Translations under genes and position numbers: made by a program | The notes under the pieces: generated by a model | The model's database searches: none | Seen by the model: the letters and a program-made list of their open reading frames with translations, nothing else | Told to the model about the DNA's origin: nothing | Shown here: in pieces, positions 820 to 30,498 of the stretch | How the letters are laid out: the number at the start of each line of letters is the position of its first letter | How positions within the stretch are numbered: the first letter of the stretch is position 1 | NCBI RefSeq assembly: GCF_900232105.1 | Contig: NZ_LT934425.1 | Location: 2,490,001-2,522,000, forward strand | Reading direction: 5' to 3' | Length of the DNA: 32,000 nt | Source: Candidatus Kuenenia stuttgartensis | Lineage (GTDB): Bacteria; Planctomycetota; Brocadiia; Brocadiales; Brocadiaceae

Positions 820-1778
820 TTACAGAGAGAAAGAGCATGAGGGATGTCTTTATAGAACAGATTTATCATCGTATGTCTGATAACAGCTCAATCTTTTTTC
901 TCTCTGCTGATTTTGGTTCACCGAAGCTTGATAAACTGAGAGAGGATTTTAGTGACAGATTTATAAATGTTGGTATTGCAGAGCAGAACCTAATAAATGT
1001 CTCGACAGGTTTAGCGTTGGAAGGGTTTACTGTGTATGCCTATGCTATTGCACCATTTTTGATAATGAGGGCTTATGAACAGATAAGAAATAACCTCTCT
1101 CTGCTTTCCCATACTCATAAGGTAAATGTAAACTTGGTGGGAGTTGGCGCAGGCTTGAGCTACGATGTATCAGGACCAACGCACCACAGCCTCGAAGATA
1201 TCAGTATAATAAGAACCTTACCCAACCTAAGCATTTTTTCTCCCAGCGATTGTTTACTCGCAGAGAAGTTTGTGGATTATTCAATAGAACACAAAAGCCC
1301 GAAATATATCAGGTTTGACGGTAAGCCATTGCCGGTTATTTATGGAAACACGAAGAGTTTGGATATACAGATCGGATTTTTTGAACTGACAAAGGGCGAC
1401 AATGTATGTTTGGTTTCAACGGGCTATATGACGCATACAGCCCTGAAGGTAGTTGAGAAATTGACCAAGGAAAATGTTTTTATCGGGCTTGTTGATGTTT
1501 TTCTGATAAAACCGCTTTATGAGGATTTACTTTTTGAGGCACTGAGTAAATATAAATATGTGATAACTCTTGAAGAGGCATTTATAAATAAAGGTGGCCT
1601 GGACAGTCTGGTATCAGGCATTTTAAATAATAAAGAAGCAAGCATTAAATTAAAAAAAATGGGATTTAGCGATAAATATCTTTTTGAGATGGGCGGAAGG
1701 GATTGCATGCACAAGTTAAATGGACTGGATGAAGACAGTATTGTCAAAGATATAAAAGACTTGCTGAGAAAGATATAA
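816..1778 (+). CDS. Split transketolase, C-terminal (pyrimidine-binding plus C-terminal domain) subunit
   Basis: 320-aa ORF with GIAEQNLINVSTGLALEGF..YAYAIAPFL.MRAYEQIRN, the typical transketolase/DXS-like Pyr-domain signature. Translationally coupled to the N-terminal subunit. Confidence 0.85.
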   Translation: MITERKSMRDVFIEQIYHRMSDNSSIFFLSADFGSPKLDKLREDFSDRFINVGIAEQNLINVSTGLALEGFTVYAYAIAPFLIMRAYEQIRNNLSLLSHTHKVNVNLVGVGAGLSYDVSGPTHHSLEDISIIRTLPNLSIFSPSDCLLAEKFVDYSIEHKSPKYIRFDGKPLPVIYGNTKSLDIQIGFFELTKGDNVCLVSTGYMTHTALKVVEKLTKENVFIGLVDVFLIKPLYEDLLFEALSKYKYVITLEEAFINKGGLDSLVSGILNNKEASIKLKKMGFSDKYLFEMGGRDCMHKLNGLDEDSIVKDIKDLLRKI

Positions 1779-1786
1779 GGCAGAGA

Positions 1787-3247
1787 ATGGATATAGTCTT
1801 AATTAATCCTGGTGACAGGAAGCAGGTTTATCAAAACCTTGGGGAAGACTACGCTGCAATTGAACCTCCGTTCTGGATTGCTGTAATAGGTGCTTATCTT
1901 AGAAATAATGGGTTTGATGTGGCAGTTATTGATGCAAACGCTGAAAATATTTCTCCACAAGAAACTGCAGAAAAAGCAAATAGATTACAACCGTTATTGT
2001 CTGCAGTAATAGTTTATGGCTCGCAACCTTCTGCATCTACACAAAATATGACAGTTGCAGGAAGAATTTGTAAGGCATTAAAAACAAACACATCTTCGAA
2101 GGTAGCTATAGGAGGACTTCATCCATCGGCATTGCCAAAAAGGACATTAGAGGAAGAAGAGGTAGACTTTGTTATTGAAGGAGAGGGTACTTTTACATTA
2201 GAACACCTTCTTAACATTTTAAGATCGGGTAGCAAGGATTACTCTAGTATTCCAGGCCTGTGGTATTTTGATAATGGAGCTATAAGAAATAATCCAAGAC
2301 CGTCGCTTATTAAAGATTTAGATAAAATGGTACCTATTGCAGCATGGGATCTTTTACCAATGGAAAGATATAGAGCCCATAACTGGCATTGCTTTGATGA
2401 TATAAATAACAGGATGCCTTATGGCGCAATATATACAAGCCTTGGCTGCCCTTACAATTGCGTATTCTGTTGTATAAATGCTCCATTTGGAAAACCAGGG
2501 ATAAGGTATAGAAGCCCTGAATTGGTAGTAGCAGAAATAGGTTTATTGACAAGCAAATACGGCATAAAAAATATAAAGATAGTGGATGAATTATTTGTTT
2601 TTAATGAAAAGCATTACATGTCAATCGTAGATTTAATAATCCGAAAAGGTTATAACCTGAATATGTGGGCTTATGCAAGGATTGATACGATTAAGCAAGA
2701 ACATTTTAAAAAAATGAAAAAGGCAGGAATTAATTGGCTTGCATTAGGTATTGAATCGGCAAGTGTTGTAGTAAGAGAAGGTGTCAATAAGAGGACCCGA
2801 GTAAAAGATATTATAAAAATTATAAGAATGATTCAATCTGAAGGTATTCGAGTGGGTGCAAATTACATTTTTGGTTTACCAGACGACAATCTTGAAACTA
2901 TGCAGGAAACCCTGGACATGGCTATGGGAATAAATTCTGAACTGGCAAATTTTTATTGTGCAATGGCTTACCCCGGCTCGGAACTTTATGATATAGCCAT
3001 AAAGGAGGGTTGGGAGTTGCCAAAGGAATGGTATGGATATTCACAGCACTCTTATGAAACCTTCCCTTTACCGACAAAATATATTAGCGCCAGAGAAGTA
3101 TTAAAATTCAGGGATGATGCATTTCATAAATATTCATCAAGTCCCATTTATCTAAATATGATAGAGAATAAATTTGGGAAAATGGTCAAAGAACATATTC
3201 AAGAAATGACGAAAACCAGATTAAAAAGAAAATTACTTGAGAGCTGA
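1787..3247 (+). CDS. B12(cobalamin)-binding-domain radical SAM enzyme
   Basis: 486-aa ORF. N-terminal Rossmann-like B12-binding region (VAVIDANAEN..., KVAIGGLHPSALP) followed by the CxxxCxxC cluster motif (SLGCPYNCVFCC). This is the only intact copy of a gene whose 3' end recurs three more times downstream. Confidence 0.85.
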   Translation: MDIVLINPGDRKQVYQNLGEDYAAIEPPFWIAVIGAYLRNNGFDVAVIDANAENISPQETAEKANRLQPLLSAVIVYGSQPSASTQNMTVAGRICKALKTNTSSKVAIGGLHPSALPKRTLEEEEVDFVIEGEGTFTLEHLLNILRSGSKDYSSIPGLWYFDNGAIRNNPRPSLIKDLDKMVPIAAWDLLPMERYRAHNWHCFDDINNRMPYGAIYTSLGCPYNCVFCCINAPFGKPGIRYRSPELVVAEIGLLTSKYGIKNIKIVDELFVFNEKHYMSIVDLIIRKGYNLNMWAYARIDTIKQEHFKKMKKAGINWLALGIESASVVVREGVNKRTRVKDIIKIIRMIQSEGIRVGANYIFGLPDDNLETMQETLDMAMGINSELANFYCAMAYPGSELYDIAIKEGWELPKEWYGYSQHSYETFPLPTKYISAREVLKFRDDAFHKYSSSPIYLNMIENKFGKMVKEHIQEMTKTRLKRKLLES

Positions 3248-3499: not shown

Positions 3500-3721
3500 A
3501 TGGAAGTCATAAGCAAGACAAAGATACTCGGAGATGGTGATATTGAGCTTTCTCCCGAGGCAAAAGAAAAACTCAAAAAATTGGTGGGAAAAACAGTAAG
3601 GATCGTTGTGCAAGAGGAAAAGGAGCTTGCCAGTCCCCTTCTTGAACTCTGTGGAAGGGCCGATGTGAAAATCAAAGACGGCTCCCTAAATCATGATAAG
3701 TATATCTATGGGGGAAAATAA
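3500..3721 (+). CDS. AbrB/SpoVT-type antitoxin (VapB-like)
   Basis: 73-aa ORF with a GGAGGAGG RBS upstream. It has swapped-hairpin-like N-terminal features (ILGDGDIELSPEAKEKL.KLVGKTVRIVV) and a C-terminal NHDKYIYG tail, also seen in the antitoxin-like ORFs at 27235 and 30127. Sits directly upstream of a PIN remnant. Confidence 0.6.
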   Translation: MEVISKTKILGDGDIELSPEAKEKLKKLVGKTVRIVVQEEKELASPLLELCGRADVKIKDGSLNHDKYIYGGK

Positions 3722-3724
3722 CCC

Positions 3725-3910
3725 TTGGAAAAAGCCTTTATTGACATTTCCTACTGGATTGCTTTTTTGAGTCTGTTTAGAAAAATAGAGTATAAAGATC
3801 TGAGTTTTGTAGATTGTACCAGTTTCACCCTAATGAAAAAGGAAGGGATTGCAAGGGCTTTGACATTCGATGCACATTTCGAGCAGATGAGTTTTCTCAA
3901 AGAGCCATAA
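3725..3910 (+). pseudogene. PIN-domain (VapC-like) toxin remnant with a large internal deletion
   Basis: 61-aa ORF with a TTG start. The N-terminal PIN strand (AFIDISYWIAFL) joins directly to the C-terminal PIN block (SFVDCTSFTLMKKEGIARALTFDAHFEQ). About 70 residues of a normal ~130-aa PIN domain are absent. Confidence 0.55.
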
Positions 3911-4148: not shown

Positions 4149-4343
4149 ATGAATTACAATCCTGTTAAAATAACCGTTGAAGAGATAAAGCATATCTTGC
4201 CCAGACTTTCGAGGTGCCAGATCATAGAATTAGATCAAAGAATTCACGAATATCTGGAGACATCCCTATTGACCAGGGCTTCAGAAACAGCATTCTCTGA
4301 ATGGGAAGACCCTGAGGAAGACCTCTATAATACCGATGTTTAA
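4149..4343 (+). CDS. Putative antitoxin of the MazF/PemK-like toxin
   Basis: 64-aa acidic-tailed ORF (..SEWEDPEEDLYNTDV) with an AAGGAG RBS. It overlaps the start of the downstream PemK-like ORF by 8 nt. Assignment rests on position only. Confidence 0.5.
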   Translation: MNYNPVKITVEEIKHILPRLSRCQIIELDQRIHEYLETSLLTRASETAFSEWEDPEEDLYNTDV

Positions 4344-4674
4344 ACCCGGCACTATAGTATTGGTCAATTTCCCTTTCACTGATAGCCAGTCTTCGAAGGT
4401 AAGACCTGCTTTGGTGCTTACCAAGAAGGGGGATGACGTTATCATCCTTGGTATTTTTTCCAAGTCCATTGATGGGCTTCGTGAGTCATGGATCAAAGTT
4501 GATGGACTTAACCCGGATTTTCATAAAACAGGATTGAAGAAGACCTCTATCATTAAAACGGAAAAAATCACAGTAATTCACCAGTCCTTGGTTCAGAAAG
4601 AACTCGGTTCCCTCTCCTTTGAATTAATGCAACAAGTTAGAAAAATACTTCGTAAAACTCTGGAAATTGAATAA
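4336..4674 (+). CDS. MazF/PemK-family endoribonuclease toxin
   Basis: 112-aa ORF starting MFKPGTIVLVNFPFTDSQSSKVRPALVL, the hallmark PemK/MazF N-terminal SH3-like signature (G.iv.v.fp......K.RPalVl). Confidence 0.8.
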   Translation: MFKPGTIVLVNFPFTDSQSSKVRPALVLTKKGDDVIILGIFSKSIDGLRESWIKVDGLNPDFHKTGLKKTSIIKTEKITVIHQSLVQKELGSLSFELMQQVRKILRKTLEIE

Positions 4675-4881: not shown

Positions 4882-5241
4882 ATGACAGCCATTGAAACAA
4901 TGCAGGAAACCCTGGACATGGCTATGGAAATAAATTCTGAACTGGCAAATTTTTATTGTGCAATGGCTTACCCTGGCTCTCAACTTTATGATATAGCCAT
5001 AAAGGAGGGTTGGGAGTTGCCAAAGGAATGGTATGGATATTCACAGCACTCTTATGAGACCCTCCCTTTACCGACAAAATATATTAGCGCAAGGGAAGTT
5101 TTGAAATTTCGAGACGATGCATTTTGTAAATATTTCAAAAATGCAGATTATTTGAATATGATGGAAGGAATATTTGGGAAAGAAGTTAAAGAACATATTC
5201 AGGAAATGGCGAAGACGAGATTGAAAAGAAAAATTCTTGAA
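4882..5241 (+). pseudogene. rSAM 3'-end copy B (equivalent to about residues 370-486), lacking everything upstream
   Basis: ETMQETLDMAMEINSELANFYCAMAYPGSQLYDIAIKEGWELPKEWYGYSQHSYE..KTRLKRKILE aligns collinearly with 2894..3247. The tracked ORF reads through to 5406 into repeat sequence. Confidence 0.75.
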
Positions 5242-5344
5242 ACAGGACGTTATATTTTTTCGGAATTCGGAATAGGGATCAGCATGAAGTGCCTCTTTGC
5301 AGACGCTCGATTCTTGGAGAATGGAGTAGTATTTAGGGGTAAAT

Positions 5345-5456
5345 GGGACAGGCTGAATTGTAAGGAGGATTTTGAAATATGCCCAGGATTCCAAGGGGAT
5401 TGGTAGATGGATTTATTTATCATGAGGCGAGAAAAGGTAGAAAGGTAGCCTGTCCC
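5345..5456 (+). mobile_element. RayT(COG1943)-like mini-element, copy 1 (internally deleted; REPtron/MITE-like)
   Basis: Bounded by inverted 10-mers gggacaggct (5345..5354) and agcctgtccc (5447..5456). Inside, ATG at 5379 encodes MPRIPRGLVDGFIYH, the canonical start of COG1943 Y1 transposases (MPR.aR....G..YH..RGN.R). This joins directly to a short K/R-rich tail like the gene's extreme 3' end. Confidence 0.5.
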
Positions 5457-5552: not shown

Positions 5553-5867
5553 ATGCACAGCTTAATAGAATTATCCCCTAATTTAAAAGGTATATTTAAA
5601 GAATTTGGAGAGAAGGCAGAAGATATAGTAATGAAGGCATTGTCTGCCGGGCTCAGGGAACTTCTGAGAGAGTGCGAAGAGGAAATATTAGAGTTTGAGA
5701 TAAAATATGGACTCTCTTTTGAAAAGTTTAAAGAACATCTCGAAAAGGGAAATGTAGGCGATTTTCACTCTTATCCTTTAGAAAATGACGCAATGTTATG
5801 GGAAGACCTTGAAGAAGAGAAACGGATTAGATTAGAATCATTGCGCAAATTGGAACGACTAGATTGA
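5553..5867 (+). CDS. Hypothetical small helical protein, candidate antitoxin partner of the next ORF
   Basis: 104-aa ORF with a GAGGAGG RBS. Its stop overlaps the start of the downstream ORF. It contains an FEIKYGLSFEKFKEHLEKGNVGD...NDAMLWEDL block of the kind seen in small antitoxin-like proteins (recollection only). Confidence 0.35.
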   Translation: MHSLIELSPNLKGIFKEFGEKAEDIVMKALSAGLRELLRECEEEILEFEIKYGLSFEKFKEHLEKGNVGDFHSYPLENDAMLWEDLEEEKRIRLESLRKLERLD

Positions 5868-6193
5868 TGTTGGGCAACTTAAAAAATGAATTGTTTCAAT
5901 TATTAGAAAAATATTTTCCTTCAATTCGAATCGACAGTAAGGAAAAACGTGGAATTATACTCGAAGTGAGGGCGCATATCGATGAGGCAACTTTCATTGT
6001 GGTTTATGCTAATGCCATAACTGGAAAGAGGAGTTTTGCTCTAATCTCAAAGGGTGAGAGGATAATTGGCTATGACAACTACAAGTTTTGGCACTATCAT
6101 CCTCCTGGCGAGCCAAACAGCCACATTCCTTGTGATGAACCTTCCATAGAATCGATAATTTTAGAGTTTAAGGCTGTACAAGAAAAATACTAA
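5864..6193 (+). CDS. TumE-like / DUF6516-like putative toxin
   Basis: 109-aa ORF. The block GERIIGYDNYKFWHYHPPGEPNSH matches my recollection of the ..RI.GYDN....HHH. core of DUF6516 (TumE family). Needs HMM confirmation. Confidence 0.5.
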   Translation: MMLGNLKNELFQLLEKYFPSIRIDSKEKRGIILEVRAHIDEATFIVVYANAITGKRSFALISKGERIIGYDNYKFWHYHPPGEPNSHIPCDEPSIESIILEFKAVQEKY

Positions 6194-6214
6194 CTTTTTA
6201 CGAGAGGGTAAAAT

Positions 6215-6319
6215 GGGACAGGCTGAATTGTAAGGAGGATTCTGAAATATGCCCAGAATTCCAAGGGGATTGGTATATGGATTTATTTATCATGAGACAA
6301 GGAAAGGTAGCCTGTGCCC
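6215..6319 (+). mobile_element. RayT(COG1943)-like mini-element, copy 2
   Basis: Near-identical to 5345..5456 (gggacaggct...MPRIPRGLVYGFIYH...agcctgtGccc). Same orientation, on the other side of the 5553..6193 gene pair. Confidence 0.5.
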
Positions 6320-6450
6320 TTTGTTTTTAATGCTCTTTTTTTAAAATGCATAACTGTAAGGCATTGATTATATGAGGCTTCCGTAAAGTTTGGAGCATTG
6401 GGTTTTTTGTCATTTGAATTTGTTTCGTATTTCGATATTCGTATTTCGAA

Positions 6451-6478
6451 TTTGGTTGCGGCCAAAGGCCGCTCTAGG
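6451..6478. repeat. REP-like palindromic unit (tttggttgcggccaaaggccgctctagg)
   Basis: Contains the hairpin gcggcc-aaa-ggccgc. It is the reverse complement, 27 of 28 matching, of 6695..6722. Preceded by the short tandem ttcgtatttcga x2 (about 6427..6450). Confidence 0.6.
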
Positions 6479-6503: not shown

Positions 6504-6695
6504 TAAAAATATGGAGGAGGAAAAGGATGGAAGTCATAAGCAATGCAAAGATACTCGAAGATGGTGACATTGAGCTTTTTCCGCAAATTTAAAGGAGGTT
6601 CTAAATGAATCCTGTTAAAATAACCGTTGAAGAGATAAAGCATGTCTTACCCAGACTTTCGAGGCGCCAGATCGTAGAATTAGATCAAAGAATTC
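6504..6695 (+). pseudogene. Second-copy remnant: start of the AbrB-like antitoxin fused to the 5' half of the mazE-like gene
   Basis: 6504..6580 matches 3476..3555 (MEVISNAKILEDGDIEL..). It then jumps to the equivalent of 4128.. (aaatttaaaggag..ATG at 6605, MNPVKITVEEIKH.LPRLSR.QI.ELDQRI). The mazE-like reading frame is cut at 6695 by the insertion. Confidence 0.7.
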
Positions 6696-6722
6696 CTAGC
6701 GCGGCCTTTGGCCGCAACCAAA
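6695..6722. repeat. REP-like palindromic unit (cctagcgcggcctttggccgcaaccaaa), inverted partner of 6451..6478
   Basis: Read directly from the sequence. It forms the first 28 nt at the left junction of the 1.7-kb insertion. Confidence 0.6.
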
Positions 6723-8395
6723 AAGGTGATTTTTAGTTTATTATAAAGTATAGTAGTATCCTCGTAAATAGTAATCAGACAATTTGGAGGACACTACTTA
6801 TGAATAAGTTGATGGAATTATATCGAGACAGGATCGTGGGTGCAATAAGCGGTCTGGACAGGATTCGTTTTCGCGGGACATTGCGGTGGTTGGCCAGTGA
6901 GCGTGGGATGGGAACATTCATGAACCAAGCGAGAATTCTGCTTAAGGATTTTTCCGGTTGGGTCAATGGGCTTACGGCACAGGTGCGAGACAGTTGTGAA
7001 TCGCGGGCGAAAGATTTGGGTATCGAGGTGCGGTATTTGATGAGCAGCGGTGTTGATAAGGAGAAGTTGGCTCGCCAGATCGCGGCGGATAAGAGGATTA
7101 CGGAAGGTTCCATCTGCCTGTTGAGTGTGGTAGAGCCTTGTATTGCGCCGATGGTCAAGGGCAACAAGGCCAGCAAGAAGCTCGAGTTGGTAATGGCGCC
7201 CCGCAAGTGTGTCTTTGTGTATCATTATTTTAACGATCCAGTGTTTGGTTTTGGTCATGTTCGTATCCAGAGTTGGGCGCCGTTTAATATTTTCATTTGT
7301 CTCAATGGTCGTCATTGGCTGGAGCGGCAACTTCAGAAGCAAGGTATTGATTATGTTAAGGACGGCAACTGTTTTGTGCGTATAGAGGATATTGCGGCTG
7401 CGCAGGTTCTGCTCCATGAGCAGCTTAAGACTGACTGGGCGAAGCTGCTGAACGGGCTTGCGTTGGGCAGTTGCCCGGCATTGTCGCAGATTCTTCGTCC
7501 GTTGGAACCGGAGTATTACTGGTCTGCGGATGAGACGGAGTGGGCGACGGACATCATGTTTAAATCGGTTGAGGCATTGGAGGAGTTGTTTCCATCGTTT
7601 GTTCATCATGCGATGCGGGTTTGCGACAGTTCTTCGGTGATGAAGTATTTGGGTAGGCGTAACCTTGCAGGCGCTGCCCCTGATGAGGTTATCAGCGACT
7701 ATCGAAGACGCTATGAAGGTATACGGGTCAAGCACAGTGTGAATTATAATTCAGTGAAGATGTATAACAAGAGCGGTAGTCTCTTGCGTATTGAGACAAC
7801 GATCAATAATACGCGGGACTTTAAGGTCTTTCGGAGTCCCAATGATGATGAAGGCAAACCGGCGTCATGGCAGAAGATGCGTAAGGGCGTAAGCGATCTT
7901 CATCGACGGTGTGAGGTGAGCCAACAATGCAATGATCGTTATGGGGATGCTTTGGCGGCGGCTCAGGTAGAGGAGAAACTGAAAGAAGTGGTGAGCAGCG
8001 CTTGTAACAAGGTTGTCAAAGAGGGCAAGAGGTATCGAGGTTTGAATCCCTGGCAGCAGGATGATTACCAGATGCTGATGTTCCTGTCCAAAGGCGAAAA
8101 CGCGATAAATGGATTCCGCAACCATGATTTGCGTAAGTGGCTTTACCGGGAATCCGAACAATCCGGCAAGGATCAGCAAAAGAAATATTCCGGACGAACG
8201 ACCCGACGGATAAAGATGCTGCGGGCACACGGTCTAATCCGCAAAGTTCCGAGGGCCAACCGCTATGTTTTGACGGAGAAAGGCCAGAAGTTCTCTTGTT
8301 CACTGATGACCGCTTCAGCCCTTGATATTAAAGCACTTACGGAAATGGCGGCATGAAAAACACGCATAAAAAACAAGAAATTGATGGATAGTAGT
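6696..8395 (+). mobile_element. 1700-bp insertion of unclassified type interrupting the second mazE-like copy
   Basis: The uninterrupted copy reads caaagaattc|acgaatatctggaga (4236..4260). Here the same two halves lie at ..6695 and 8396... The insert is visibly G+C-richer than its flanks and has a single long ORF. No terminal IRs and no duplication at the outer junctions. A 9-bp direct repeat ATAGTAGTA occurs at 6750..6758 and 8388..8396. Confidence 0.65.
6800..8356 (+). CDS. 518-aa protein of unknown family, cargo of the insertion (putative mobility protein)
   Basis: Long ORF with a GGAGG RBS (6786..6790). Foreign-looking composition. C-terminal winged-helix-like segment (RRIKMLRAHGLIRKVPRANRYVLTEKGQ). 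I cannot recognise a DDE, HUH, serine or tyrosine recombinase motif by eye. Confidence 0.5.
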   Translation: MNKLMELYRDRIVGAISGLDRIRFRGTLRWLASERGMGTFMNQARILLKDFSGWVNGLTAQVRDSCESRAKDLGIEVRYLMSSGVDKEKLARQIAADKRITEGSICLLSVVEPCIAPMVKGNKASKKLELVMAPRKCVFVYHYFNDPVFGFGHVRIQSWAPFNIFICLNGRHWLERQLQKQGIDYVKDGNCFVRIEDIAAAQVLLHEQLKTDWAKLLNGLALGSCPALSQILRPLEPEYYWSADETEWATDIMFKSVEALEELFPSFVHHAMRVCDSSSVMKYLGRRNLAGAAPDEVISDYRRRYEGIRVKHSVNYNSVKMYNKSGSLLRIETTINNTRDFKVFRSPNDDEGKPASWQKMRKGVSDLHRRCEVSQQCNDRYGDALAAAQVEEKLKEVVSSACNKVVKEGKRYRGLNPWQQDDYQMLMFLSKGENAINGFRNHDLRKWLYRESEQSGKDQQKKYSGRTTRRIKMLRAHGLIRKVPRANRYVLTEKGQKFSCSLMTASALDIKALTEMAA

Positions 8396-8602
8396 ACGAA
8401 TATCTGGAGACCTCCCTGCTGACCAAGTCTTCAGAAACAGCATTCTCTGAATGGGAAGATATTGAGGAAGACCTCTATCATTAAAACGGAAAAAATCACA
8501 GTAATTCACCAGTCCTTGGTTCGGAAAGAACTCGGTTCCCTCTCCTTTGAATTAATGCAACAAGTTAGAAAAATACTTCGTAAAACGCTGGAAATTGAAT
8601 AA
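8396..8602 (+). pseudogene. Second-copy remnant: 3' part of the mazE-like gene fused to the last ~50 nt-equivalent region of mazF
   Basis: Matches 4246..4328 and then 4551..4674. The 222 bp between the two 12-bp direct repeats gaagacctctat (4317..4328 and 4539..4550 in copy 1; a single copy at 8467..8478 here) are missing. Confidence 0.75.
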
Positions 8603-8800: not shown

Positions 8801-9181
8801 ATGACAGCCATTGAGACAATGCAGAAAACCAAGAAAATGGCAATGTAATTAAATACTGAATTAGCAAATTTTTATTGTACAATGGCTTATCCTGTCTCGG
8901 AACTTTATGATATAGCCATAAAGGAGGGTTGGGATTTGCCAAAAGAATGGCATGGATATTCACAGCATTCTTATGAGACCATACCTTTACCGACAAAATA
9001 TATTAGCGCAAGGGGTGTTTTGAAATTTCGAGACGAGGCCTTTTGTAAATATTTCAAAAATGCAGCTTATATGATGGAAGGAAAATTTGGGAAAGAAGTT
9101 AAAGAACATATTCAGGAAATGACGAAGACGAGATTGAAAAGAAAAATTCTTGAAACAGGACGTTATCCTTTTTCTGAATAG
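8801..9181 (+). pseudogene. rSAM 3'-end copy C (in-frame stop)
   Basis: MTAIETMQKTKKMAM-TAA (stop at 8846..8848), then ..FYCTMAYPVSELYDIAIKEGWDLPKEWHGYSQHSYE..KTRLKRKILETGRYPFSE. Preceded by a copy (8603..8800) of the spacer 4675..4881. Confidence 0.75.
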
Positions 9182-9259: not shown

Positions 9260-9592
9260 ATGGATAAGGTAATATTCAATGACAACGAAGAGAAAGCTGT
9301 TTTGAAACTTAAAGAGGTTTTGACGGAAAGATTCAAGCTTCTGGACTTTCGGGTTTTTGGCTCAAAGGCACGTGGCGAAGCCTTGCCTGATTCCGATATC
9401 GATGTCATGATAAAAATTGATGAATATTCACCGGAAATTGAGTCGGCAATTGACGATCTTGTATATGAACTAAACCTCAGCTATGACTGTTTTATATCGG
9501 TTATCATCTTCAGCAAAAAAGAGATAGAAGAAGGTCCTATGAGTGAGTCACAGATATATAAGGCGATCGAAAGAGAGGGAATTAAGGTTTGA
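9260..9592 (+). CDS. MNT-type nucleotidyltransferase (antitoxin of a HEPN/MNT module)
   Basis: 110-aa ORF with the Pol-beta NTase signature FGSKARGEALPDSDIDVMI (GS..RG....SD.D). Overlaps the downstream HEPN ORF by 4 nt. Confidence 0.75.
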   Translation: MDKVIFNDNEEKAVLKLKEVLTERFKLLDFRVFGSKARGEALPDSDIDVMIKIDEYSPEIESAIDDLVYELNLSYDCFISVIIFSKKEIEEGPMSESQIYKAIEREGIKV

Positions 9593-10020
9593 TTCCTGAT
9601 GATAAGAAAGATGCCCTCGCAAGATACAGGATAAAACAGGCAGAAGAAAGCCTTGCGGAGGCGAAGTTTCTCTTGGTAGGCAAGCAGAGTCCCCGCTCTG
9701 TGATCAATAGGTCATATTATTCAATGTTTTACGCTGTATCGGCTTTACTTGTGTATGAACAATACTCATCTTCAAAGCACAGTGGTGTTTTGAGTTATTT
9801 CAATAGACGTTTTGTAACAGGCGGTATTTTCAGTGAAAATCTCGGACGGTCTATAAACAAGGCATTTGAATTAAGACAGCGAGGAGACTATCGTGAGTAT
9901 TTTGAATTGACTTATGAACAGGTTGAACCTTATATTTCTGAGGCGGAAGTCTTTATAAATGCGGTGAAAAACTATTTACAGAAAATAACAAAACCCGCTG
10001 CTGAACAGAATGAACATTGA
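9589..10020 (+). CDS. HEPN-domain protein (toxin of a HEPN/MNT module)
   Basis: 143-aa all-helical ORF: RYRIKQAEESLAEAKFLL....SPRSVINRSYYSMFYAVSALL..., ELRQRGDY. Typical HEPN (PF05168-like) architecture and a canonical position after the MNT gene. TTG start. Confidence 0.7.
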   Translation: MIPDDKKDALARYRIKQAEESLAEAKFLLVGKQSPRSVINRSYYSMFYAVSALLVYEQYSSSKHSGVLSYFNRRFVTGGIFSENLGRSINKAFELRQRGDYREYFELTYEQVEPYISEAEVFINAVKNYLQKITKPAAEQNEH

Positions 10021-10285: not shown

Positions 10286-10516
10286 AAAGAATGGCATGGA
10301 TATTCACAGCACTCTTATGAAACATTACCTTTACCAACAAAATATATTAGCGCAAGGGATGTTTTGAAATTTCGAGACGATGCCTTTCCTAAATATTTTG
10401 AAAATCCAGTTTATTTAAAAATGATAGACGAAAAGTTTGGGAAAAAAGTCAAAGAACATATTCAGGAAATGACAAAAACCAAATTAAAAAGGAAGTTAAT
10501 TGAAAACCAATTCTAA
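10286..10516 (+). pseudogene. rSAM 3'-end copy D (5'-truncated), abutting the pathway genes
   Basis: EWHGYSQHSYETLPLPTKYISARDVLKFRDDAFPKYFENPVYLKMIDEKFGKKVKEHIQEMTKTKLKRKLIENQF-stop. Its stop (10514..10516) overlaps the TTG start at 10500 of the next gene. Confidence 0.75.
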
Positions 10517-27234: not shown

Positions 27235-27417
27235 ATGATTGATGCTATGCCAGAGGATGAGCTTAAAAAAGTCTTTGGAATCCTGGAACGTCTTATAGAA
27301 AAAGACAGTAATGAAGCGTGGTCAGTATGGGAAGAACTTGGTAAAGACGCTGCTGAAGGCAAATGGAATGATGCTTCAGAAAGACACGATTTCTATTTAT
27401 ACGGAATAAAGAAATGA
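27235..27417 (+). CDS. Small VapB-position antitoxin-like protein, copy 1
   Basis: 60-aa ORF ending ..ASERHDFYLYGIKK (an HD.Y.YG tail as in the 3500 antitoxin). ATGA overlap with a PIN-type ORF start. Confidence 0.5.
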   Translation: MIDAMPEDELKKVFGILERLIEKDSNEAWSVWEELGKDAAEGKWNDASERHDFYLYGIKK

Positions 27418-27616
27418 AAATCTTTATTGATACCAGCGCGTGGGTTGCCTTAGAAAACAGAAAAGACATTCACTTGATAAAGATTTTGAACAAATGGGCT
27501 TTGCAAAAAGCCCTTTGCTAACGTATATATGACGTGGGGAATATTTTCCAAACTACTTTTAAACAAATATGGAAATCACAAAAAATATTCACAGTTTCGC
27601 AATCGGGTTCATAATA
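27241..27616 (+). repeat. Direct repeat, copy 1 (~376 bp; partner 30121..30498)
   Basis: Collinear by eye with 30121..30498, with scattered substitutions. Covers the antitoxin-like ORF, the gutted vapC and a decayed fragment resembling an rSAM accessory-domain C-terminus (..DVGNIFQTTFKQIWKSQK..). Confidence 0.7.
27414..27521 (+). pseudogene. VapC (PIN) remnant with internal out-of-frame deletion, copy 1
   Basis: MKIFIDTSAWVALENRKDIH is a canonical PIN N-terminus. The next bases encode, in another frame, DKDFEQMGFAK, a canonical PIN C-terminal t.D.dF block. The domain core is missing. Confidence 0.55.
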
Positions 27617-30120: not shown

Positions 30121-30498
30121 GGATGCTATGCCAGAGGAAGAATTTAAAAAAATCTTCGAAACACTGGAATGTATTATGGAAAAAGACAGTAATGAAGCGT
30201 GGTCAGTATGGGAAGAACTTGGTAAAGGCGCTGCTGAAGGCAAATGGAACGATGCTTCTGAAAGACACTATTTCTGTTTGTACGGAATAAAGAAATGAAA
30301 ATCTTTATTGATACCAGCGCGTGAGTTGCCTTAGAAAACAAAAAAGACATTCACTTGATAAAGATTTTGAACAAATGGGCTTTGCAAAAAGACCTTAGCT
30401 AATATGTATATGCCATGTGAAATATTTTTCAAATTCTTTTTAAACAAATTTGGGAATCAGAGAAAAATTTTTCCACTTTCGTATCCGGGTTTATAATA
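30121..30498 (+). repeat. Direct repeat, copy 2 (partner 27241..27616)
   Basis: See 27241..27616. Homology ends exactly where the MITE-like element begins (30499). Confidence 0.7.
30127..30297 (+). CDS. Small VapB-position antitoxin-like protein, copy 2 (56 aa, below the ORF-track cutoff)
   Basis: Hand translation: MPEEEFKKIFETLECIMEKDSNEAWSVWEELGKGAAEGKWNDASERHYFCLYGIKK. AAGGAGAGAGAGG lies upstream. The following vapC start (30294) now carries TGG>TGA at codon 10. Confidence 0.45.

Follow-up and report, generated by a model that had tools for sequence, protein, structure and literature searches.

The window analysed here is a stretch of 32,000 nucleotides from Candidatus Kuenenia stuttgartensis (contig NZ_LT934425.1, positions 2,490,001 to 2,522,000), and its comparison with itself reveals two diverged copies of a mazE-like/PemK module. 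The second mazE-like copy is interrupted by exactly 1700 bp (6696..8395, forward strand), described below as a complete autonomous insertion sequence (IS) with a single long open reading frame (ORF; 6800..8356, forward strand) encoding a 518-aa protein. The two mazE-like copies correspond on both sides of the interruption, positions 4158-4245 and 6608-6695 being 95% identical and positions 4246-4331 and 8396-8481 being 90% identical, and the paralogous empty site (4236..4260, forward strand) lies between C4245 and A4246 of the intact mazE-like gene at 4149-4343. Removal of 6696..8395 in silico leads exactly to caaagaattC|ACgaatatctggaga; the restored sequence is caaagaattCACgaatatctggaga, and the frame ...DQRIHEYLE... 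is regained. Only one phasing fits, with an insert reading 5'-CTAGCG...GGATAGTAGT-3' and a target C^AC, so that a His codon in the mazE-like ORF is split after its C. An earlier note on this DNA, made from the sequence alone, had proposed a nucleotide-precise 1.7-kb insertion, and the comparison of the mazE-like paralogues bears this out to the base.

The insert is richer in G+C than its flanks (0.48-0.53 vs 0.34-0.42) and its ORF is preceded by a good ribosome-binding site (RBS; GGAGG), as that note had also recorded. No terminal inverted repeats were found when the ends of 6696..8395 were compared, and no target duplication appeared when its flanks were compared with the empty paralogous site, again in agreement with the earlier reading. 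The note had further suggested a search for empty and filled sites in related strains; no orthologous empty site was found in the other Kuenenia assemblies examined, and at locus L185 the first copy of the mazE-like gene alone is present.

Copies and distribution of the element

The identical 518-aa protein is recorded on 153 contigs, the longest being the 4.4-Mb chromosome of Ca. Kuenenia stuttgartiensis MBR1. In the complete genome of strain CSTR1 (CP049055.1), at least ten copies encoding the identical protein occupy unrelated loci, including the ftsW-murG interval, a flagellar operon and the neighbourhood of restriction-modification genes. Seven of these copies match the window element from end to end at 99.9-100% identity (six of them at 100%), while the remaining three have both ends in common with it. 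Relatives of the element are also multi-copy in metagenome-assembled genomes (MAGs). A Brocadiaceae MAG contains three identical copies, which match the window at 91% identity over exactly 6695-8397, and a long-read Thermoguttaceae MAG contains nine identical copies of 1708 bp; the Victivallales and Hydrogenedentes MAGs have four and six copies, respectively. A decaying copy, 92-96% identical to the window element, lies at a different locus in Planctomycetia H5_AMX3 (L020, 2892-4343) and has lost ~250 bp within the transposase gene, equivalent to window positions 7038-7288.

Close homologues number more than 4521, nearly all of ~517 aa and located on contigs of 1.7-2.1 kb, and such short contigs are the signature of a repeat that breaks assemblies. 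An exhaustive hidden Markov model (HMM) search retrieved 7262 clusters at 50% identity, 956 of them at E <= 1e-30, with a constant length of ~515 aa. The family spans at least eight bacterial phyla, the genome scan having found it in Planctomycetota, Lentisphaerota, Acidobacteriota, Chloroflexota, Bacteroidota, Desulfobacterota, Hydrogenedentes, Calditrichia and others. A search of 72,556 plasmids gave 11 weak matches. Among plasmid homologues, the one on Paraburkholderia plasmid NZ_CP014580.1 (252820-254310) is full-length (29% identity, 98% coverage) and labelled as an ArsR family transcriptional regulator, a mis-annotation that stems from its C-terminal winged helix, and those of Rhodococcus and Mycobacterium plasmids are shorter and cover only aa ~141-495.

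The element therefore displays the generic features of an insertion sequence, namely identical copies at unrelated loci, conserved ends, transposition functions only and an empty/filled pair. Thus, the copy at 6696..8395 is intact and recently active and belongs to an IS family not classified before, and it is almost certainly an autonomous IS whose 518-aa product is the transposase. The insert had been put forward as a candidate novel mobile element, and this is what the CSTR1 copies, the multi-copy sets in other phyla and the miniature derivative described below establish: the element is multi-copy in CSTR1, with defined ends, and no known IS transposase was matched in Pfam and NCBIfam.

Ends, leader and miniature derivatives

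The left end of the element (6696..6724, forward strand) is conserved family-wide and consists of CTAGC, a 6-bp GC stem (6701-6706 / 6710-6715) with a TTT loop, and AACCAAAAA. The hairpin GCGGCC-TTT-GGCCGC at 6701-6715 folds as DNA with -8.9 kcal/mol (z = -2.7). Down to 30% protein identity, the left-end consensus is (C)C-Y-A-G-C-G followed by a G+C stem of 4-6 bp, a loop and AACCAAA. The stem takes the forms GCGGCC/GGCCGC, GCGGCT/AGCCGC, GCGGC/GCCGC, CCGGC/GCCGG and CTGG/CCAG, with at least three compensatory pair changes, and AACCA is invariant, while the loop varies in length and sequence (TTT, TCT, ATA, TTCG or an extension of 11-13 nt). Because the stem covaries while the loop varies, selection acts on the structure of the hairpin rather than on the sequence of its loop.

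Between the left end and the gene, a second, longer stem (6752..6798, forward strand; arms 6752-6763 / 6787-6798) is predicted to sequester the RBS at 6786-6790 and stops just 5' of the ATG at 6800. The DNA fold of 6696-6805 reaches -17.3 kcal/mol (z = -4.3), and none of 200 shuffled sequences folded as well. Equivalent stems of other sequence, pairing with the RBS/ATG, occur in the Thermoguttaceae, Hydrogenedentes and Victivallales relatives. Leader stems that occlude the RBS are a classic means by which IS avoid activation by read-through transcripts.

The right end comprises 39 non-coding nucleotides (8357..8395, forward strand) with the terminus GGATAGTAGT (8386-8395), and its consensus in the subfamily logo is ...GG(A/T)T(A/T)GTAGT, which is also kept in the miniature derivative. 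GTAC was considered as the terminus of the element and rejected, as three CSTR1 copies end in ...TAGT followed by AT. The element has a strand-specific pair of asymmetric ends and inserts at a single phosphodiester without duplication. In the Hydrogenedentes MAG (L045-L051, L069), the subfamily right end is ...GGTTAGGGAC, the copies lie mostly within a repeat resembling repetitive extragenic palindromic (REP) sequences, with a CCCCGAAGGGG hairpin followed by AACATGACAG on the left and a CCAGGGCAACGCCCTGGG hairpin on the right, and the homology between copies runs for a variable distance into the flanks.

Short derivatives of the element are also found. At the Brocadiaceae locus L021 (~1000-1190, minus strand), an intact miniature derivative (MITE) of ~190 bp keeps only the hairpin module of the left end and 48 nt of right-end sequence, with unrelated DNA between them. 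Read from this MITE, the requirements in cis are ~27 nt at the left end and ~48 nt at the right end. The window itself contains a decayed MITE of the same family (6321..6477, reverse strand), ~90% identical to the interior of the L021 MITE, which keeps its left end CTAGAGCGGCCTTTGGCCGCAACCAAA (6477 down to 6451) and has lost its right terminus. Its interior contains repeats of ACGAAAT type that resemble the target units of the IS.

The earlier note had located the hairpin gcggcc-ttt-ggccgc and a 9-bp repeat, ATAGTAGTA, at 6750-6758 and 8388-8396, and both are present where it put them. From these it had left open a history of two events, in which a hairpin element was followed by a 1.63-kb element with a 9-bp duplication. 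The two copies of ATAGTAGTA and the further hairpin found 240 bp upstream of the element would suit such nested events. However, the whole 1700 bp, including the hairpin, moves as a unit in every copy and relative, and the hairpin is kept at the left end from 91% DNA identity to 30% protein identity; it is an integral end of the element, and the two-event history is therefore excluded. The left copy of ATAGTAGTA is the 5' arm of the RBS-sequestering stem and no second element boundary, and the upstream hairpin (the motif occurs twice in the window, with 0 occurrences expected) is explained by the separate decayed MITE at 6321-6477. An ordinary or domesticated single-copy gene is contradicted in turn by the many copies across phyla, and the probability of either explanation is close to nil.

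Target site

In the window, the left half of the target (6686..6695, forward strand) is formed by the 9-mer CAAAGAATT and the C of the split CAC, and the right half (8396..8403, forward strand) by the AC of the split CAC and GAATAT, so that the sequence around the insertion point is CACAGATTAC^ACAGATTA. In three CSTR1 copies with the same ends, AT follows instead of AC, and therefore the two bases after ...TAGT belong to the target and not to the element. In a logo built from 37 distinct flank pairs, the base 5' of the element is C in 95% of the pairs, the right flank after AC/AT is R-R-A (A = 0.95) and then T or G, and there is an enrichment of a CAC box ~10 nt 5' of the insertion point (C 0.65, A 0.46, C 0.57).

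The 11 Kuenenia insertion sites (C^AC in eight and C^AT in three) follow the pattern CCAC-RRAWW-N-C^AY, as in AAC-CACAGATTA-C^ACAGATT(A/G)-CACAGATTA. These targets are tandem 9-mers of the form CAYRRAWWN, with the insertion in the second unit. Repeats of 6-8 bp around some Kuenenia copies were considered as target-site duplications and rejected. The flanking direct repeats are imperfect and vary from 2 to 8 bp around elements with the same ends, and the empty site in the window already holds both 9-mer units (CAAAGAATT-CACGAATAT); thus, they represent pre-existing target structure. A single CAYRRAWW unit occurs in the window at chance frequency (68 observed vs 65 expected), and selectivity must therefore lie in the phased tandem arrangement.

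Two further observations concern the use of such arrays. In CSTR1 (L174 and L175; CP049055.1, ~4.24-4.25 Mb), two copies of the IS share one insertion position within another repeat of Kuenenia, which ends with inverted arrays of CACGGAA(T/C)A 9-mers, and the IS may prefer the ends of another repeat or MITE family built from its target units. At L052 (~500-545), a full copy begins with its left end 14-17 nt after the right terminus, TTAGTAGT, of a copy lying upstream, with CACAGAG units between both, so that two insertions share one 9-mer array.

The transposase

The ORF at 6800..8356 is the only one conserved in all elements. Its product is a "hypothetical protein" in public records, and the family has no Pfam or NCBIfam model. 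Searches of Pfam, NCBIfam, PHROG and PDB sequences with the window protein and ten diverse relatives matched only a C-terminal winged helix, which was likewise the sole signal for all 94 members of a deep family alignment reaching down to 27% identity; no known IS, replication initiator (Rep) or defence family was recovered by these searches. The earlier note had seen no motifs of DDE, HUH, serine- or tyrosine-recombinase type, and in Pfam and NCBIfam the protein indeed matches no known transposase domain. Its proposal of a winged helix at the C-terminus is also supported: a MarR-like winged helix-turn-helix (wHTH) at aa ~440-505 (8117..8314, forward strand; 441-507 in the model) is matched by HTH_45 (E = 0.0056), by HVO_A0261_N in 39 of the 94 members (best E = 2.8e-5) and, at the level of the family profile, by the MarR chain 3bj6 (E = 0.035).

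A first AlphaFold (AF2) model from a shallow alignment was unusable (predicted local distance difference test, pLDDT, 60), whereas the 94-sequence alignment yielded a model with a pLDDT of 92.5 and a predicted template modelling score (pTM) of 0.85. From the N- to the C-terminus, this model comprises a long strand, four long antiparallel strands, a helical excursion, another long strand, four further strands, a helical linker and the winged helix. On the basis of conservation, motifs and Foldseek, aa 1-~360 (6800..7879, forward strand) are predicted to form the catalytic domain, a curved beta-sheet of the TATA-binding protein (TBP) or Rep_trans type. The best named Foldseek matches in BFVD are proteins with the TBP fold, namely a Terrestrivirus TBP (E = 5.8e-4, probability 0.99) followed by TBP-like proteins of iridoviruses and asfarviruses. 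The fold class of the model is therefore probably TBP-like, although the same structural comparison, which the earlier note had advised, gave nothing significant in the PDB.

Across the 94 sequences, the invariant columns are Y143 (7226-7228), G150, P161, N169, L174, E247 (7538-7540), Y322 (7763-7765), R330 and E332 (7793-7795), and the near-invariant ones include D20 (6857-6859), R21, E112, D251, K320 and K324 (codons on the forward strand). Y143, together with R155-x-Q157 on the next strand, mirrors Y322 and R330-x-E332 in the other half of the sheet, and hhalign even pairs Y143 with RepC motifs III and IV. No sequence signal of an internal duplication was found between the two halves. This arrangement suggests that a two-tyrosine enzyme (Y143, Y322) is possible.

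Relationship to Rep_trans initiators

Rep_trans rolling-circle initiators have a TBP fold, and the active site of RepDE is formed by Y191 with D46, D142 and E214, as stated in a 2026 paper (PMC13107129). The archaeal Rep-Arvir initiators, which combine a catalytic domain with a MarR-like wHTH, were found through TBP matches in BFVD (PMC13107129). Using the residues described by Carr et al., five motifs of the family can be placed in the same order as in pT181 RepC: GLD20RIRFRG against SFD46AMTIVG, E247WATD251 against D142LAFD146, Y305EGIR309 against Y178FGVR182, K320MY322NK324 against R189IY191NK193, and LR330IE332 against WR212VE214. These motifs cover the catalytic tyrosine and the three metal ligands of RepDE, on which the invariant E247, Y322 and E332 and the near-invariant D20 would fall in this sequence comparison. 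Rep_trans motif III is found as K320-M-Y322-N-K324, followed by R330-I-E332 on the next strand. In addition, the strand order of the model agrees with that of RepDE and RepSTK1, in which an N-terminal central strand is followed by four strands, the motif-1 strand and four strands with motifs 2-4. The resemblance of VKMYNK...LRIETT to Rep_trans initiators pointed out in the earlier note thus extends to five colinear motifs and to TBP-fold matches, but the profile statistics behind it are weak and the relationship is unproven.

The family has several features in common with Rep_trans and MOBT enzymes (pT181 RepC/RepD and RepSTK1; Tn916 Orf20 and ICESt3 RelSt3), namely a curved TBP-like beta-sheet, predicted here from the model, the motif order phi-D-x-phi-x-phi-x-G, [DE]-x-A-x-D, Y-x-G-x-R, [RK]-phi-Y-N-K and R-phi-E, and, by analogy, action beside a DNA hairpin with an accessory DNA-binding domain. 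It differs from them in having no HMM-level similarity, in its length of 518 aa, in large insertions and in the MarR-like wHTH at its C-terminus. Moreover, the hairpin loop is variable here, so that the nick would lie beside the stem and not in the loop, and the family belongs to an IS that occurs in many chromosomal copies, has defined ends and uses a target motif, rather than to a plasmid, phage or integrative and conjugative element. The likeness to Rep-Arvir/DUF7845 (RepSNJ2; PMC13107129) lies in a (here predicted) TBP-fold catalytic domain followed by a MarR-like wHTH, a relation to Rep_trans at the structural level only, a nearby hairpin and Foldseek matches of TBP type in BFVD. In contrast, there is no match to Pfam DUF7845, the tyrosine context is KMYNK here and KHYYM in Rep-Arvir, and the family is bacterial and carried by an IS, unlike the replicons of archaeal viruses and plasmids.

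Comparison with known transposons

In its mode of action, the element is closest to IS200/IS605 and IS91, and its enzyme is closest to Rep_trans and Rep-Arvir. Like IS200/IS605, it has no inverted repeats or duplication, asymmetric ends, a subterminal hairpin, a short specific target, a 5' leader stem that sequesters the RBS, and MITE- or REP-like derivatives. Its transposase, however, has 518 aa (TnpA has ~150 aa) and neither an HUH motif nor a Y1_Tnp domain; Y1_Tnp (PF01797) and TnpB were absent from the Pfam and NCBIfam results, and the single ORF is the 518-aa one. A further difference is that the hairpin is clear at the left end only and that target specificity extends to both sides of the nick, in tandem 9-mers. 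A lagging-strand bias is typical of IS200/IS605, whereas copies of the present element show no consistent orientation relative to the local GC skew.

Like IS91, ISCR and Helitrons, the element is ~1.7 kb long with a single ORF, causes no duplication, and has asymmetric ends, a short target sequence next to one of them and a pair of conserved tyrosines (here Y143 and Y322). Nevertheless, it has no HUH/Y2 domain, Y2_Tnp (PF04986) being matched in Pfam and NCBIfam neither by the window protein nor by the 94 members, its tyrosines lie in different halves of the sheet and not on one helix, and there is no evidence of one-ended read-through products.

The resemblance to IS110/IS1111 consists of absent or minimal inverted repeats, no duplication and sequence-specific, often repeated extragenic targets, and it raises the alternative of an RNA- or DNA-guided recombinase, comparable to those using bridge or seeker RNAs, with the 104-nt left non-coding region as the guide. 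Both the strong structure of this region (z = -4.3) and the sequence-specific target without inverted repeats or duplication would be compatible with a guide. Several observations nevertheless make it very improbable: the region is short, with no long non-coding RNA; RBS sequestration accounts for its second stem, whose covariation follows the RBS/ATG instead of the target; relatives with very different left-end interiors share the C^AY/RRAWW target; and there is no DEDD/RuvC-like domain, no Rfam match of the element to any RNA family and no core dinucleotide duplicated at both junctions. The DEDD transposase models (PF01548/PF02371) were likewise not matched in Pfam and NCBIfam.

Beyond these groups, no NCBIfam or Pfam model of the IS families named by NCBI (DDE, Ser and Tyr; ISNCY subgroups, ISKra4, ISLre2, ISAzo13, ISH6, IS1202 and others) was matched, and no transposase annotation by RefSeq was seen in the family records examined. 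The Replitrons paper (2022-23) lists IS200/IS605, IS91/ISCR, Helitrons and Replitrons as the groups mobilised by Rep proteins, all of them HUH enzymes, and our literature search found no description of a transposase with a Rep_trans/TBP fold or of the family of the window element.

Proposed mechanism

Mobility, copy number, exact ends and target pattern are observed, as are hairpin covariation, residue conservation and the absence of duplication. We propose that the element represents a new IS family in which a tyrosine nickase resembling Rep_trans brings about transposition by single-strand transfer, a reading to which we assign a probability of about 0.6. What is proposed here on the Rep_trans homology, the single-strand chemistry, the moving strand and the succession of steps draws on the analogy to Rep_trans initiators, MOBT relaxases and, among HUH-type elements, IS200/IS605 and IS91. 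The protein would consist of an N-terminal nicking-joining domain of the TBP/Rep_trans fold type, with D20, E247 and E332 as putative metal ligands and Y322 as the putative nucleophile, and a C-terminal winged helix for DNA recognition. In the first step, the wHTH and the sheet would bind the extruded left-end hairpin with its CTAGC/AACCA foot, and Y322 would then nick C^CTAG, leading to a 5'-phosphotyrosine link. Y143, or else another protomer, would then cut at TAGT^AY, and the ends would be joined into a single-stranded TAGT|CTAG circle or an equivalent displaced strand, the donor being resealed to C|AY or copied. Finally, the reverse reaction would take place at C^AY in a phased array of CAYRRAWWN 9-mers, and the host would synthesise the complement. 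Because one strand would be exchanged at one phosphodiester, no target duplication would arise and inverted repeats would not be needed. The four junctions (C^CTAG, TAGT^AC, C^AC and the predicted circle junction TAGT^CTAG) are consistent with one reciprocal single-strand exchange.

Several results weigh against this proposal. At the level of the protein, hhalign of the core against Rep_trans pairs exactly the motifs given above (P = 0.009, z ~3; 2 of 150 column shuffles score as high) and the N-terminal strand reaches P = 8e-4, but these sub-regions were picked by eye after the motifs had been seen, so that the P-values look stronger than the evidence is. Over the full length, hhalign gives a probability below 1% against RepC or a five-sequence Rep_trans alignment. 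Nine Rep_trans sequences bring no improvement (P only 0.01-0.03), the available set being narrow: the RepC homologues listed are at least 81% identical, IMG/VR contributes one locus and the phage collection none. PF02486 is not matched at E <= 10 by the window protein or any of the 94 members. The Foldseek search against the PDB returned no match at E <= 0.001, with RepDE (4CWC/4CWE) outside the top 50, and the TM-scores of the TBP matches are low, about 0.2. At the level of the DNA, a right-end hairpin is not significant in the window copy (fold z -0.3 and -1.0), no circle or tandem junction TAGT|CTAG was seen among the loci examined, and orientation relative to the local GC skew shows no consistent bias, being positive in seven of 11 Kuenenia copies, with ~40 other copies also considered. 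Therefore, the sequence comparison and the model suggest rather than prove a homology to Rep_trans; we consider true homology, or at least a shared active-site design, to be probable.

Alternatively, the transposase could have a new fold unrelated to Rep_trans, with a convergent YNK...RxE, and act for example by double-strand cut-and-paste with flush joins or by duplex exchange resembling that of tyrosine recombinases. All results on mobility and anatomy are equally compatible with this explanation, and neither the sequence-profile nor the PDB Foldseek searches gave a significant Rep_trans match. Nevertheless, apart from structural Gly, Pro, Asn and Leu, the invariant residues are only Tyr, Glu and Arg (Y143, E247, Y322, R330, E332), and all of these except Y143 fall in order on the positions of the Rep_trans motifs. 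Together with the TBP-fold matches and with a one-ended covarying hairpin and absent duplication, which are typical of single-strand nickases and not of DDE enzymes, this makes a new fold unlikely.

Rep_trans-like motifs beside a hairpin are also the arrangement of pT181 and Rep-Arvir origins, and many metagenomic contigs are about as long as the element, so that it might be seen as an integrated miniature rolling-circle replicon or satellite, with the protein as initiator, the hairpin as origin and the copies arising by integration of circles. However, no right-end/left-end junction occurs on any contig examined, and the contigs of ~1.7-2.1 kb bear chromosomal flanks with the same target motif. 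In addition, ten chromosomal copies with defined ends and a MITE correspond to the behaviour of an IS, and there is no second gene, no recognisable lagging-strand origin and little presence on plasmids (the 11 weak matches reported above). A replicon is thus quite improbable.

If the single-strand transfer by a Rep_trans-like nickase is taken as the working reading, the family could further be the founding example of a transposon superfamily moved by a non-HUH tyrosine nuclease of the Rep_trans/TBP fold, for which we see even odds. Y143 and Y322 may then lie in the two halves of one pseudo-symmetric sheet, and the winged helix may read the phased 9-mers. Dimeric RepC shares its two strand cleavages between subunits; the two tyrosines, if this assignment is true, could let one monomer carry out both.

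Neighbouring features

The surroundings of the element contain other repeats. The last ~110 codons of a B12-binding radical-SAM gene recur three more times downstream at 74-87% DNA identity (gene and 3'-end repeats at 1787-3247, 4882-5406, 8882-9181 and 10364-10516), separated by toxin-antitoxin-like pairs at 3500-3910, 4149-4674 (the mazE-like/PemK module), 5553-6193 and 9260-10020 (NTase/HEPN). This array looks like a serial insertion of cassettes, each with a replacement 3' end. Direct repeats of 106 bp, 92% identical (5335-5440 and 6205-6310), bracket the two-gene unit at 5553-6193 and may be cassette boundaries within the array. Farther away, a pair of 300-bp direct repeats, 91% identical, lies at 27241-27540 and 30122-30421, 2.9 kb apart.

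Significance

IS finders based on known transposase models should miss this family, whose members are annotated as hypothetical or ArsR proteins. It also breaks assemblies, most homologues standing alone on contigs of 1.7-2 kb, and bacteria of practical importance, among them the anammox organisms Kuenenia and Brocadia, have genes disrupted by it. Sequence-directed single-strand insertion without duplication and short cis ends (the ~190-bp MITE) would make the element a candidate for a compact DNA-insertion tool, and with it one can test directly how two different ends are selected and joined by a Rep-type nickase. If the Rep_trans-like assignment is true, a second, structurally unrelated class of rolling-circle nickases would have been recruited as transposases, and Rep_trans enzymes would act in bacterial IS as well as in plasmids, phages and conjugative elements.

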